A stretch of 64,000 bases of DNA from contig JAYFMW010000028.1 in the NCBI GenBank assembly GCA_042408215.1, positions 128,001 through 192,000 on the forward strand, written 5' to 3'. Shown in pieces: positions 8,859 to 14,862 of the stretch. Position numbers and translations under genes: made by a program. The stretch is from Microcoleus sp. GTDB lineage: Bacteria; Cyanobacteriota; Cyanobacteriia; Cyanobacteriales; Microcoleaceae. The notes under the pieces were generated by a model that saw only the letters and a program-made list of their open reading frames with translations, was not told the DNA's origin and did not search any database. Position 1 is the first letter of the stretch, and each line of letters begins with the position of its first letter.

Positions 8859-9028
8859 AATATTTGATCTCAAGGTAAGTAACTCGTTCCTCATTAAACG
8901 TAAAATGCGATCGATCGCTATTACATACCCGACTTCTTAAACAAATCAAGGATCTGGGTATTCGTTTTTTTTAAGTGTTTCTACTTATATTTTATGTGGC
9001 TTTTGTCGATCGCCATTCTCCAATCTCA

Positions 9029-9140
9029 CAGGACTTAGGCACTCCGACTCCTCGAAACCGGGTTTTTTTACGAAAAGACCCGTTACAGCCCGCAGATTCC
9101 CTAAAAAACCCGGTTGCTGGGCCCCCATTCGTAAATCCTA
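9029..9140. mobile_element. MITE-like element (AGGACTTA(C/G)GCA-type end, internal GAAACCGGG/CCCGGTT hairpin)
   Basis: Related copy at about 34398-34500; it inflates the 5' end of ORF 8975..10999. Confidence 0.6.
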
Positions 9141-9157
9141 TAAAATCTAAAATTCTC

Positions 9158-10999
9158 ATGTCTTCTGTCTTAACAGCCGATGTTTTAGTAGTTGGTGGCG
9201 GTACCGGTGGCACCTCTGCCGCCGTACAAGCGGCCCGCTGTGGTGCCAAAACTATTTTGGTGAGTGAATTTCCCTGGTTGGGCGGAATGCTTACTTCTGC
9301 TGGGGTTTCGGCTCCCGACGGGAACGAATTAGCAGCTTTTGGGACTGGTTTGTGGGGCGCTTTTCTCCGGGAACTTCAGCAGCGGCAGCCGGGAGGTTTG
9401 GATTGGGGCTGGGTCAGTTTTTTTACTTACGATCCCCGCATTGGTGCGGCAATTTTTGCTGATTGGGTTAAATGTTTACCGAATCTGCACTGGATTTCTG
9501 GACAAATACCTCAAGATGTGCTATGGGAAGCCGATCGCATTGTAGGCGTTCAATTCCCAGATTTTACGGTTTGGGCCAAAATCACTTTGGATGCCACTGA
9601 ACTGGGAGATTTATTGGCTTTGGGTGAGGTTTCTCACCGTTGGGGTTGGGAGTTTCAAGGGGAATTTGGAGAACCCAGTGCGCCGATCGCTCCTAATGAT
9701 CTTACACAAACATATCCGGTACAAGCTCCCACTTGGGTCGCAATTATGCAGGACTATGGGGAAGGTGCTGTAGCCCCGGAAATTCCCGCGCCGCCTCTTG
9801 ACAATCCCGATCGCTTTACCGGTGCTTGGGATAATTACACTCCCGAACAATTTCTTAATTACGGCCGACTTCCCGGTGGACTGCTCATGATTAATTGGCC
9901 GATTCGTGGTAATGATTATGGGGAAAAGGTCGATCGACTCATTGGCTCTGAAACATCAAGACAAGAATTCCTCCAAGAAAGTCTATGGCACAGCCATAGT
10001 TTCGCCCGCTTCATTCAAACCCAACTCGGCCGCCGCTACGGCTTAGCAGAGAACATTTTTCCCATCAAAAATCAACAAAATTCTACACTCCTAAATTCTG
10101 CCTTCGCCTTGCATCCCTACTACCGAGAAAGCCGCCGCTTGCAAGGAGTAAAAACAATCCGAGAACAAGATATTTTGCCCGTTACCGGCGGCAGAGTCGC
10201 GAAGTTGCCCATAAATGCTGAGGGAATTTGTGAAACAATTGCGATCGGCAATTACGCCAACGATCACCACTACCCCTGTGGCGACATCCCCTTACAGCCA
10301 AAATCTATCCGCTGGGGCGGTCGCTGGACCGGAACTCCTTTTACAATTCCTTACAGTGCGCTAATTCCTGCGAATACAGACGGTTTGCTAGTCTGCGAAA
10401 AAAATATCTCCGTTTCTCACATCGCTAACGGTGCCACTCGCTTACAGCCGACGGTAATGAATATCGGACAGGCGGCGGGGATGGCGGCGGCTTTGTGTGT
10501 CCAACGGGGATGTCAGCCGCGGGAGTTGCCAGTCAGAGTTTTGCAGGAGGCTTTGCTGCAAGATTTCGAGGCGAGTGTGGCAGTTATTCCTTTATTTAAT
10601 TTGACACCTAATCGATCGGATTGGCTTTACTGGCAACGCTATTATTGCGATCGACCTTCCTCCTATCCAGCCAGCGGTAATTGTCCTTTGTCGGTAGAGA
10701 AACCAAGCACTGACAGCAGAAATACTCAAAGCCCCTTTTCTGGCATTTTCCACCGCCGAGGCGAACAAGATTACGCCCTGACGCTGACTGATTCGGCATC
10801 CAATGCCCGACAAACTTGGCAACTCGTGACTTTAGAGCCTGAAACCGACCAGTTTTTACAGAGTTGCGAAACCGAAAAGCCTCTGACAGTATGGGGGAGG
10901 CTGAATTTGGCCGGTGCTTGGCTGCTGGTAGAAGCAGCAGAGTTAGGGGAATCTGGTTTTTTGCAGAAGTTCCTGAAATTTCACAGAAATTTATCCTGA
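9158..10999 (+). CDS. FAD-dependent oxidoreductase
   Basis: DVLVVGGGTGG Rossmann motif, LGGMLTSAG, YYRESRR, ISVSHIANGATRLQP. Start moved to ATG 9158 because upstream sequence is a repeat element. Confidence 0.88.
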   Translation: MSSVLTADVLVVGGGTGGTSAAVQAARCGAKTILVSEFPWLGGMLTSAGVSAPDGNELAAFGTGLWGAFLRELQQRQPGGLDWGWVSFFTYDPRIGAAIFADWVKCLPNLHWISGQIPQDVLWEADRIVGVQFPDFTVWAKITLDATELGDLLALGEVSHRWGWEFQGEFGEPSAPIAPNDLTQTYPVQAPTWVAIMQDYGEGAVAPEIPAPPLDNPDRFTGAWDNYTPEQFLNYGRLPGGLLMINWPIRGNDYGEKVDRLIGSETSRQEFLQESLWHSHSFARFIQTQLGRRYGLAENIFPIKNQQNSTLLNSAFALHPYYRESRRLQGVKTIREQDILPVTGGRVAKLPINAEGICETIAIGNYANDHHYPCGDIPLQPKSIRWGGRWTGTPFTIPYSALIPANTDGLLVCEKNISVSHIANGATRLQPTVMNIGQAAGMAAALCVQRGCQPRELPVRVLQEALLQDFEASVAVIPLFNLTPNRSDWLYWQRYYCDRPSSYPASGNCPLSVEKPSTDSRNTQSPFSGIFHRRGEQDYALTLTDSASNARQTWQLVTLEPETDQFLQSCETEKPLTVWGRLNLAGAWLLVEAAELGESGFLQKFLKFHRNLS

Positions 11000-11053
11000 T
11001 CGATCGGGGAGAGTCCGTATCAGTTAATAGACACTGACACGGATACTAACCCC

Positions 11054-11233
11054 ATGCAAACTTACACACCATTTGCTTTACTGAGTCTTTTGGGCGTTAC
11101 TTTGAGCGCTACTGTCGATGGAGCTTTTGAATCCCTCGTCGGACTGCTCGAAATTGCCACCGCTCCATACATTTTATCCGCCCAAACTGCACAAAGGGGC
11201 GATCGTTCTCCAGAAAGAGGCAGCGGACGCTGA
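11054..11233 (+). CDS. patX: PatX-like RGSGR signalling peptide precursor, copy 1 (59 aa, ends in ERGSGR)
   Basis: Translated by hand: MQTYTPFALLSLLGVTLSATVDGAFESLVGLLEIATAPYILSAQTAQRGDRSPERGSGR*. Hydrophobic N-terminus, RGSGR motif, upstream of hetR. Confidence 0.88.
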   Translation: MQTYTPFALLSLLGVTLSATVDGAFESLVGLLEIATAPYILSAQTAQRGDRSPERGSGR

Positions 11234-11861
11234 GAGTTCATTGAGCCTCATCTTTACACTCATCCGCTACAAGCATTTTAATGACATTGGACGAAAGCGA
11301 TTTCCGTTATTGAGTTAGTTTTGACCGCCCGTGTCGAGCGCTCAATCTGATTTTCTGGGATGCTAGTTTTTCAGGTTCCCAAGGCAACTGCACTTCTTGT
11401 TTACAGTCAATAGGATCTTCTTTTGTGTGAGTGATGATAGCAGATAAAACTTCAACCGCCATCGATCGAGAGATTGACTCTCGTCTTTGGCGGTTTTGTA
11501 TATTATTGCAACCTTCTGGGTAGTGCAATTAGGAAGTTTTTACTGAAACCAGAGATTTTCTGCCATTTCACATCGACTTCTGACTGCTCTCATAGATCGG
11601 CTGCTACCCATCTAAAGTGTCTGTTGCTTCTCGACGGGGGAGAGGGTGAGAAAGGGAGAGGGCAAGAGAATTTTACGCTTTTTATACAAGGATTTTAGGA
11701 GACTATTTAAATGCGCGATCGCTTAACTAAAGCCTGATTCCTGATTCTGATTCCTGATTCCTTCTTCCTGATTCTATAGTTTGATAATTTCAGGGAAATT
11801 CATCCTGATCGGCCTGGGTAAATTCCGTATCTCTAAATAGACACTGACACGGATACTACCC

Positions 11862-12083
11862 ATGAAAACCTACACAGCAATTGCTTTACTGAGCCTTTTG
11901 GGCATGACCTTAAGTGCCACTTCCAGTGCAGCCGTTGAACCTCCAGCCCAAGGGTTCGAAACAGCTACTGCTCAATATATGTTGTCAGCGCAAACTCAAC
12001 AAAGCCCCGAGCGTGCTCCTAAGAGAAGCAGCTCCCGCAAAAATTTCATCGAGTCTAATGTTTCCACTCATCCGCTACAATAA
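11862..12083 (+). CDS. PatX paralog, copy 2 (73 aa; motif altered to KRSSSR)
   Basis: Colinear with copy 1 (MKTYTAIALLSLLGMTLSAT...ETATAQYMLSAQT...APKRSSSR); upstream and downstream DNA also duplicated. Confidence 0.8.
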   Translation: MKTYTAIALLSLLGMTLSATSSAAVEPPAQGFETATAQYMLSAQTQQSPERAPKRSSSRKNFIESNVSTHPLQ

Positions 12084-12533
12084 TTTTCATGGTACTGTAC
12101 GAAACCGATTTCCCCAACTCACTTGGTTCGGGCCGTTAATCCGATCGCTCGCTCTGATGAAATAGAATTATCGTTTTTCCATTTCAACGACAATTGCACT
12201 TTTTGTTGACAGTGATTAGGAGATTCTTTTGTGTGTGAGTAATGATAGCATATAAACTTTTAACCGCCATCTACCTAGAGATAGACTCTAGGGTGGGGCG
12301 GTTTTGTATTGAGAACAATTCAAATACCAATTACTACCGGATTATTCAGCGAATTTACAATAATTCATATTCTGTACGGATACAGTAATTCAAAGATCAA
12401 TCAGCTCTGAGTGCTGACGGGGTGCGATCGCGCTGGATGCCAAGGCGTTGGCGTGACAGAAAGGGAAATTAACTGGGATGAACAGTGGGCTTGCTGGCAA
12501 GCTTTTTGACGACAGTCGGCTATGCTTGAATCT

Positions 12534-12550
12534 GAGGGGTATTCACCCTC
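12534..12550. promoter_or_regulatory. Candidate HetR-type operator upstream of hetR
   Basis: GAGGGGTATTCACCCTC, an imperfect palindrome resembling the hetP HetR site GAGGGGTCTAACCCCTC (recalled); TATGCT at 12521-12526. Confidence 0.4.
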
Positions 12551-12677
12551 ATTACACGCCGAGGTGAGTTACTGTATCGGAAGCCTCTCATCTGTTGTGC
12601 AAGCAGATGGTGCTTTCATGTCTCCTCACCTTGCTCCGAAACGGGTTTCTTCAACTCCTGCTTGACTTAACAACTGA

Positions 12678-13950
<1,273 letters not shown>

Positions 13951-13983
13951 CCTTCTTCCTTCTTCCTTCAACATCTGCTATAA

Positions 13984-14862
13984 CTAAGCTAAAAAAGCTC
14001 TCCAGACTAAGGCTAAGATGATGGCTGCGATCGCTCCGATGAGTGTATTGACAAAATTCACCACCTCGTTGGTGAGCCACTCAAACTTTGATTGGACGGT
14101 TGCGCCAATCACGCTCTCGATGTTGGTGGCAATAAAAGCTGCAATAACACAAAAAGCAATTCCTGTCAAGTCTATTAAACCCACAGCCCAAGCTAAAAGT
14201 GCGATCGCGATCGAAGCTGCAATACCTGCGAGAGTTCCTTCTAAACTCACAGCCCCTTCGGTACCCCTAGGTACGGGCTTCAAGGTAGTAATCAAAAACG
14301 TCCGCTTCCCGTAAGCTTTACCAATTTCGCTGGCGCTGGTGTCGGAAAGTTTGGTGCAAAAACTGGCCGCGTAGCCCAGCAATAACCAGGAAATAACCTC
14401 TTGTGGGACAGGCAAAATTAAATTTTGTGGAACAGGCATCTTGCCTGTTTGTTGTAAAATACTGGCTGTCTCTCCTAAAATCTTGCCTGTCTCTCCTAAA
14501 ATAGAGAATCCCAAAACTCCCAAAGCACAAAGAGTAGCGGTTAAAGCAGAACCCCAAACATTTTCCGGGCCTCGTGCGCCGGAACGCTTTTCGGCTATGC
14601 CTTCTGCTTCTTTTTGGGCTTTACCGATACGAGTAACTCCCGATCCGACGAGAAAGTAGAACATCACCACAGCATAGCCTTGCCATCCCAAACAGCCCCA
14701 GATGGTGACACCCAACAGCCAGCCGTGAAATTGCCCAGCCGGAGTGAGCAATTTTTTGGGGACAATAGTGGCGATCGCCAGTAAAATTGTATTCAGGGCG
14801 ATCGCCACCAACCAAGGATTAGACCAAGACAAATAATTAAAGAACAATTCAGAATTCTGCAT
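13984..14862 (-). CDS. DUF92 / TIGR00297 family membrane protein with in-frame repeat insertion
   Basis: GARGPENVWGS, KLSDTSASEIGKAYG, PRGTEGAVSLEGT, ESVIGAT. Confidence 0.9.
   Translation of the reverse strand: MQNSELFFNYLSWSNPWLVAIALNTILLAIATIVPKKLLTPAGQFHGWLLGVTIWGCLGWQGYAVVMFYFLVGSGVTRIGKAQKEAEGIAEKRSGARGPENVWGSALTATLCALGVLGFSILGETGKILGETASILQQTGKMPVPQNLILPVPQEVISWLLLGYAASFCTKLSDTSASEIGKAYGKRTFLITTLKPVPRGTEGAVSLEGTLAGIAASIAIALLAWAVGLIDLTGIAFCVIAAFIATNIESVIGATVQSKFEWLTNEVVNFVNTLIGAIAAIILALVWRAFLA

Follow-up and report, generated by a model that had tools for sequence, protein, structure and literature searches.

The subject of this report is a tandem pair of patX genes upstream of hetR, found in a window of 64,000 nucleotides from Microcoleus sp. 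(GCA_042408215.1, contig JAYFMW010000028.1, positions 128,001 to 192,000); coordinates are those of this window unless stated otherwise. Two units of ~525 bp, at 10975-11505 and 11786-12309, align with 73% identity (E 9.6e-82). In each, TCCTGA stands 17 bases ahead of GTATC and is followed by an open reading frame (ORF), a 3′ region of ~200 bases and a stable hairpin (Table 1). The genome has only these two copies, its two other matches to the unit being 22–23 nt long (E ~1). The ORF of the first unit (copy A) ends in ERGSGR, and that of the second (copy B) is an intact frame of 73 residues with KRSSSR at the equivalent codons. The duplication in front of hetR, the two hexapeptides and the 3′ hairpins had all been proposed in an initial annotation of this stretch, and all were confirmed; both hairpins fold, and none of 200 shuffled sequences folded as well. 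The same annotation described the change in copy B as the replacement of both glycines by serine, which is correct, but it omitted the change of glutamate to lysine.

Both ORFs are derived from patX and linked to hetR, as had also been suggested, since both match the PatX model NF047413 and hetR is the next gene downstream. The matches fall below the cut-off of 30 bits (27.3 bits, E 4.5e-6 for copy A; 25.9 bits, E 1.3e-5 for copy B); many A copies of relatives pass it. Pfam has no model for either ORF. The copy B protein is 58% identical to copy A and 63–70% identical to the single-copy proteins of relatives. In copy A a TGA at 11231 directly follows the motif, and the former tail is still readable downstream. 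An Rfam search over 10500-14200 gave no match within the units and six weak ones elsewhere, five of them in repeats behind hetR, and a scan for sigma-70 promoters was uninformative (3 found, 6.1 expected). No nifH match above the cut-off was obtained in this genome, which fits the initial view that the filament is probably non-heterocystous.

Table 1. Features of the tandem patX locus (positions in the window) and related loci elsewhere (locus or genome handles)
Feature	Position	Strand	Remarks
FAD (flavin adenine dinucleotide)-dependent oxidoreductase gene	8975..10999	+	PF12831, 3.3e-97; precedes the first patX copy in most relatives of the genus
TCCTGA, DIF1/sigma-HetZ-like -35 element of copy A (putative role)	10994..10999	+	one change from TCCGGA
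Imperfect inverted repeat CCGTATCAG-N10-CTGACACGG	11015..11042	.	covers the probable -10/start region; candidate operator
patX copy A, 59 aa, ends ERGSGR	11054..11233	+	relaxed signal peptide, mid-region more hydrophobic; NF047413 27.3 bits
ERGSGR codons of copy A (HetR-inhibitor hexapeptide)	11213..11230	+	invariant in 38/38 A copies
Terminator-like hairpin, unit A	11454..11495	+	-24.3 kcal/mol, z -6.2, 0/200 shuffles as good
Heptamer tandem repeat CCTGATT x6 in the spacer	11733..11774	.	repeat search
Copy B promoter region	11803..11852	+	TCCTGA retained, left half of inverted repeat changed
patX copy B, 73 aa	11862..12083	+	predicted Sec-type signal, conserved like the linker; hypervariable basic core; 25.9 bits
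KRSSSR codons, hypervariable core of copy B	12021..12038	+	last Arg kept
Terminator-like hairpin, unit B	12262..12303	+	-23.5 kcal/mol, z -4.1, 0/200 shuffles as good
hetR, 300 aa	12762..13664	+	NF009718 573 bits, cut-off 489; starts 679 bp behind copy B
Third, unlinked patX, 66 aa, ends ERGSGR	G000:C6:184653-184853, locus L242	+	65 bits, above the NF047413 cut-off
Two-site PatX loci of five sister genera	L318-L325, L328-L331		G108, G109, G107, G112, G114, G113, G128, G130, G135, G134, G149, G151

The tandem pair is not private to this genome. Loci were fetched and their ORFs read from 79 Microcoleus genomes, of which 78 have a match to the unit. The A and B pair is present in 38 of the 79 and a single linked copy (S) in 38, with G030, G073 and G100 unassigned; two of the pairs are split over two contigs, and one of the pair genomes, a 67%-complete bin, also has a single copy. 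The motif RG(S/T)GR is present in all 39 S copies, all 38 A copies and 4/38 B copies, and in these four Tyr follows the motif in place of Arg. Among the 38 B copies there are 33 different hexamers. RSSSR occurs in the present genome alone, and a conserved RSSSR ligand is not supported. The frame of copy B is nevertheless open over 72–77 codons in 38/38 genomes, with no stop or frameshift, and all eight alleles with an insertion or deletion in the core stay in frame. Gap-free Arg occupies the last motif position in 34 of the 38, and 28 of these 34 also keep the first arginine (R1).

Copy B is not decaying, and RSSSR is not conserved in it; its core changes at about five times the rate of neutral yardsticks. 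In a comparison of 14 genome pairs, each genome being used once and three core codons being scored, the B core differs at 41 of 96 nonsynonymous sites (pN, the proportion that differ, 0.43). The corresponding values for the yardsticks are 0.091 for synonymous sites of the same ORF, 0.087 for synonymous sites of hetR and 0.089 for 3′ non-coding DNA. The equivalent codons of copy A show no change at 93 nonsynonymous sites and one at 33 synonymous sites. The Fisher p of ~1e-14 for this test is overstated because kin are not independent. A custom-built codon model, with trees taken from the flanks and the core masked in indel alleles, was applied to the 15 B copies of one clade (clade V) and to the other 22 B copies, G018 being excluded as a separate duplication. 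In clade V, whose type of B is also carried by loci L192 and L198, omega, the ratio of nonsynonymous to synonymous rates, was 25–34 in the core, 7–9 in the eight codons before the hexamer and 0.03–0.05 in the signal peptide, and a free omega was preferred to a faster neutral rate (log likelihood -128.1 vs. -132.6). In the other 22 copies the core omega was 4.4–5.1. A bound that needs no tree is in line with selection: the nine core bases of 12 ungapped clade V alleles require at least 13 changes, compared with 0–3 in the 17 windows beyond the variable stretch (p 0.003 if the flank rate is assumed, 0.12 for a rate of 1.0).

The accelerated stretch comprises ~13 residues and ends at the kept Arg, and its substitutions are nearly all to polar or basic residues. 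In 25 distinct ungapped core alleles a mean of 6.4 of 15 bases are changed, third positions are changed in 28 of 75 codons, and the net charge has risen from +1 to +2.6. These alleles contain no stops, where 4.9 were expected (p 0.006), and 4 hydrophobic residues, where 31.8 were expected. A search of the genome for the template of a diversity-generating retroelement gave no additional match to the unit or to the 90-nt core region; the best side match, of 42 nt (E 0.01), lies outside the B core. Upstream of the core, 31 of 37 B copies have Lys or Arg at position 2 and 37/37 have an unbroken hydrophobic stretch, a predicted Sec-type signal which is under purifying selection (p 4e-9 and 1e-3). 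This selection and the open frame in every B copy support the view that the copy is maintained as a gene. They agree poorly with the initial suggestion of a decaying copy, as do the low omega of the clade V signal peptide and the lack of stops. Neutral evolution together with a variable motif in relatives had been named beforehand as an outcome that would speak against a function of copy B; the motif is indeed variable, but it changes faster than neutral sequence.

Copy A is the mirror image of copy B, in that the motif is invariant and the remainder drifts. Its signal region has an omega of 0.85 in clade V, and a polar residue or Pro lies within positions 6–19 in 23 of 37 A copies and in no S or B copy. 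In the present genome the N-terminus of copy A is hydrophobic, putative Sec signals having been judged from the residues. Like PatS of Anabaena PCC 7120, copy A here ends exactly at its ERGSGR, as 9/38 A copies do at the motif. PatS peptides, however, are 13–17 residues long with a C-terminal RGSGR and no export signal, and copy A, a PatX derivative of 59 residues with a hydrophobic N-terminus in a non-heterocystous genus, shares only the motif with them. The resemblance is probably convergence and not orthology. In one relative (L037 of G014) an in-frame internal deletion in the first copy leaves a 25-residue peptide ending in ERGSGR, near the size of PatS.

The putative promoter element TCCTGA is present in 38/38 A and 38/39 S copies, and TCCTGA or TCCCGA, one mismatch from TCCGGA, stands 17–18 bases before GTATC in all A and all B copies. 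G-32 of the DIF1-type promoter has been reported to be replaceable (PMC13342950). In the present genome the stop codon of the FAD-dependent oxidoreductase gene (TGA, 10997-10999) sits inside the TCCTGA of copy A, so that gene end and promoter overlap. The left half of the inverted repeat, GTATCA, is kept in 38/39 S and 38/38 A copies and in only 3/38 B copies, and this loss suggests that B is regulated differently from S and A. B is covered, with few differences, by RNA-library contigs from four studies. In X5 and X7, A and B lie on separate RNA-library contigs that end near the hairpins and leave the spacer uncovered, a weak hint that A and B are two separate transcripts. Contigs of X1 and X2 cross promoter or spacer DNA and may derive from DNA; a break in the X2 contig over the B core (12004-12044) is a hint only.

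In a tree of the 5′ regions, A (36 rows) and B (37 rows) group separately from S, with the exception of the G018 pair and of a further class, the C copies, which are separate duplications. Here again a canonical first copy is followed by an altered second one (G018, and L344 and L355 among 42 metagenome loci); the G018 pair reads ERGSGR-stop, then ERGSRR. The C copies have a shortened tail and RGGGR or RGDGR (L178 of G094, L187 of G030, L344 and L355), and G094 (L178) has three tandem copies. Seven clade V genomes have A copies that cluster with those of G000, G005 and G008, whereas rpoB (p of the approximately unbiased test 8e-73) and hetR (2e-15) reject such a grouping. The tree of the unit in turn rejects placing those genomes with their single-copy kin (1e-27), although the groups were picked after inspection of the trees. 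The patX cassette has therefore moved horizontally between lineages. Clade V alleles of B keep differing remnants of the ancestral motif, QSGSGR in one and ERKRNR in another, and the B ancestor of this clade was therefore intact, its motif having been altered more than once.

The initial annotation had described a two-peptide module for control of HetR. The pair and its linkage to hetR stand, but a third, canonical patX, which lies unlinked elsewhere in the genome between coaE and a convergent TldD/PmbA peptidase gene, had been missed. This unlinked gene is present in 75/79 genomes of the genus and has variant motifs, e.g., RGEGR, RGDGR and RGQGR, in 24 of the 75. In a 22-genome clade, chosen from the tree of this gene, omega reached 12 for the residue that precedes the motif and 23 for Ser, with 0.15 for RG-GR; in 25 of the 52 others the same three classes gave 0, 0.77 and 0. 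Variants occur in 16 of 35 genomes with the duplication and in 8 of 37 single-copy genomes, a difference (Fisher p 0.045) that is confounded by clade. That the unlinked gene loses its motif only where copy A is present was considered and rejected, as the eight single-copy genomes with variants show.

In other genera of the family, hetR-upstream regions were obtained from 20 of 56 genomes, and 14 of these 20 regions yielded a PatX ORF. Twelve of the 14 precursors combine an internal site, which aligns with the Microcoleus motif and is non-canonical in 11, with a C-terminal RGSGR, present in all 12. The combination of one fixed and one variable peptide thus recurs, within one precursor or across two genes. 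Three loci from other families of the order have arrangements of their own: a tandem pair with HRGSGR-stop and then DKGTGRR (L077 of G050), a lone RGTSR copy (L073 of G049) and a precursor with three RASGR repeats (L079 of G039).

The residues of Anabaena HetR that bind the PatS hexapeptide are R223, E253, D256, D270 and D278; the peptide binds as a beta-strand whose two arginines make the main contacts (PMC4649674). These five residues map to R224, E254, D257, D271 and D279 of Microcoleus HetR and are identical in 72/72 full-length sequences. Residue 255 is Thr in all 72, where Anabaena has Glu254, a residue reported to hold the N-terminus of the peptide and whose replacement by Ala weakened binding from 12 to 91 nM (PMC4649674). 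No pocket residue tracks the duplication. Outside the pocket, E170 (14/35 vs. 0/37) and H144 and H276 (5/35 vs. 0/37) were considered as duplication-linked residues and set aside, as they follow clades. With an invariant pocket, HetR is not co-evolving with B, and the initial idea that copy 2 is an altered-specificity ligand of HetR finds no support. The receptor co-variation seen with pherotypes is thus not found in HetR, the only receptor examined, no genome-wide receptor search having been made.

With considerable confidence it can be said that copy A keeps the hexapeptide, and that copy B keeps its signal peptide, linker, reading frame and last Arg as ~13 residues change faster than neutral. 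In Nostoc, sigma-HetZ drives patX from a DIF1 promoter (PMC7377430; PMC13342950), and PatX is exported by Sec and cleaved in the periplasm by PatP, the hexapeptide then blocking HetR (PMC12756182). By analogy, A and B would be transcribed separately from promoters of the sigma-HetZ type. Copy A would yield ERGSGR, which would bind the HetR hood and free HetR from DNA; with its weakened signal peptide and, in this lineage, a ready-made C-terminus, it may act from the cytoplasm or via septa like PatS. Copy B would leave the cytoplasm by Sec, and trimming in the periplasm would give a short basic peptide with the kept Arg at its end. This peptide would no longer be a useful inhibitor of HetR and would most likely be read in encounters of filament with filament or of filament with enemy. 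We give about an even chance to the view that B serves in recognition, as an exported peptide that varies between strains under diversifying (frequency-dependent) selection and has a partner other than the HetR pocket. A second role for PatX is allowed by Leptolyngbya BL0902, also non-heterocystous, in which the effects of PatX are largely HetR-independent (PMC11298460); the placement of necridia has been conjectured to be its ancestral role (PMC7761841).

Several observations weigh against a recognition peptide. The core of B is also changed at 12 of 30 synonymous sites (pS) in the pair comparison, the 22 older B copies fit a faster neutral rate equally well (omega 0.78, rate x5.9), and the recombination demonstrated at the locus inflates omega. 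In clade V the linker and tail of B have an omega near 1. Both HetR-contacting arginines are mostly retained in B, which is compatible with a ligand of HetR, and four B copies still have the canonical motif. The RNA evidence consists of contigs, which can neither rank genes nor show transcript starts.

The strongest of the alternatives is that B and the variant unlinked PatX are weak HetR ligands or competitive blockers and serve as a rheostat. On this account the arrival of an A cassette raises the dose of inhibitor, and selection then weakens the spare exported copies along a different path in each lineage. It agrees with the persistence of the two main HetR contacts, with the unlinked gene, which changes mainly at the residue before the motif and at Ser and keeps RG-GR, with the highest omega being found in transfer recipients, and with the excess of unlinked variants in duplicated genomes, confounded as that is. 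Yet several codons have changed at all three positions (7/9 bases in three genomes), beyond what loss of binding calls for, the eight residues preceding the hexamer are accelerated too, and the unlinked copy varies in single-copy genomes as well. An invariant, shared receptor should moreover lead to convergence, and what is observed is nearly one allele per species. We regard the rheostat as possible, though doubtful. It is the acceleration over ~13 residues, the repeated change of the same codons, the approximately one allele per species and the invariant HetR that lead us to prefer a recognition peptide to the rheostat and the other alternatives.

An exported decoy, with which B would occupy the processing peptidase, an importer, or an RGSGR sensor of a phage or competitor, would agree with the conserved export signal, last Arg and basic core, and PatP processing in the periplasm is known for Nostoc PatX (PMC12756182). 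Its core would have to spare the cell's own HetR and keep changing to stay ahead. We consider this unlikely: a decoy for a host enzyme predicts relaxed and not accelerated change, and no relative of B or HetR was found on viral contigs in a search sensitive only to close relatives. Less likely still is a local hot spot of hypermutation or patch recombination from which selection merely removes stops and hydrophobic residues. The fit of the older copies to a rate-only model, the changed third positions and the recombination at the locus are what such a hot spot would give, but the equivalent A codons have a single synonymous change, no retroelement template repeat exists in the genome, for 10/12 ungapped clade V cores the closest core from outside the clade differs at 2–5 of nine bases, and in clade V the selection model is preferred. 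Neutral decay of a redundant copy would account for the loss of the motif in 34/38 B copies, the 38 genomes with one linked copy only and the near-neutral linker and tail, and is nonetheless highly improbable in view of a core changing well above the yardsticks, a signal peptide under purifying selection, frames that stay intact through eight indel alleles, and the RNA-library contigs that cover B.

PatX beside hetR is already known. Like PatX (Asl2332) of Nostoc/Anabaena PCC 7120 and hetR-linked patX (NF047413; PMC7761841; PMC12756182), both copies are small precursors with a putative Sec-type N-terminus, a motif near the C-terminus and a DIF1-like promoter, adjoin hetR and match the family model. 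They differ in forming a tandem pair with split roles, in the accelerated core of B and its lack of RG(S/T)GR in 34/38 copies, in the relaxed signal peptide of A, in scores just below the cut-off and in the presence of a third patX elsewhere. HetL, a pentapeptide-repeat protein and competitive protector of HetR (PMC7476756), offers a possible model for a B peptide that fills the HetR pocket without inhibiting, although B is a short, putatively exported peptide.

Rap-Phr, ComX, Agr pherotypes and the precursors of ribosomally synthesized and post-translationally modified peptides (RiPPs) combine a conserved export or leader part with a hypervariable core. Copy B resembles them in both respects, as does its locus in the horizontal exchange of a cassette. 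Unlike these systems, patX has no co-varying receptor or modifying enzyme beside it, and the adjoining HetR does not co-vary. Diversification of the kind found in B is what would be expected of a strain-identity or arms-race signal. More tentatively, and possible rather than probable, the locus may hold a self/non-self code, in which a lineage-specific exported basic peptide (B, and in one clade also the unlinked patX) is read by a polymorphic receptor, A has become PatS-like, and the cassette spreads horizontally. If so, a pherotype system would have been derived from a heterocyst-patterning morphogen and would serve kin recognition in a shared sheath or mat.

What is new is a patX pair that has been sub- and neo-functionalised, has spread horizontally and has a peptide core under positive selection. 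Neither this pair nor a diversifying PatX was described in the literature searched, which did not include Elhai and Khudyakov (2018) or Feldmann (2012), and a 2026 review of M. vaginatus (PMC13594678) mentions neither hetR nor patX. The role of HetR and PatX in filaments without heterocysts has been termed a mystery (PMC11298460). The locus provides a natural allelic series, in which a fixed inhibitor and a HetR that does not vary are combined with ~30 variants of the second peptide, and close relatives that have or lack the cassette are available for comparison. Peptides of six residues are cheap to make, so that binding and allele-specific responses are readily testable. That a developmental signal is under strong positive selection suggests that it has a social or antagonistic role in this globally abundant builder of biocrusts and mats, and copy A illustrates a route from PatX to a PatS-like peptide.

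Short repeats are common in filamentous cyanobacteria. Behind hetR, the window has heptamer repeats together with tandem and inverted repeats of 44 and 90 bases (13645-13951).

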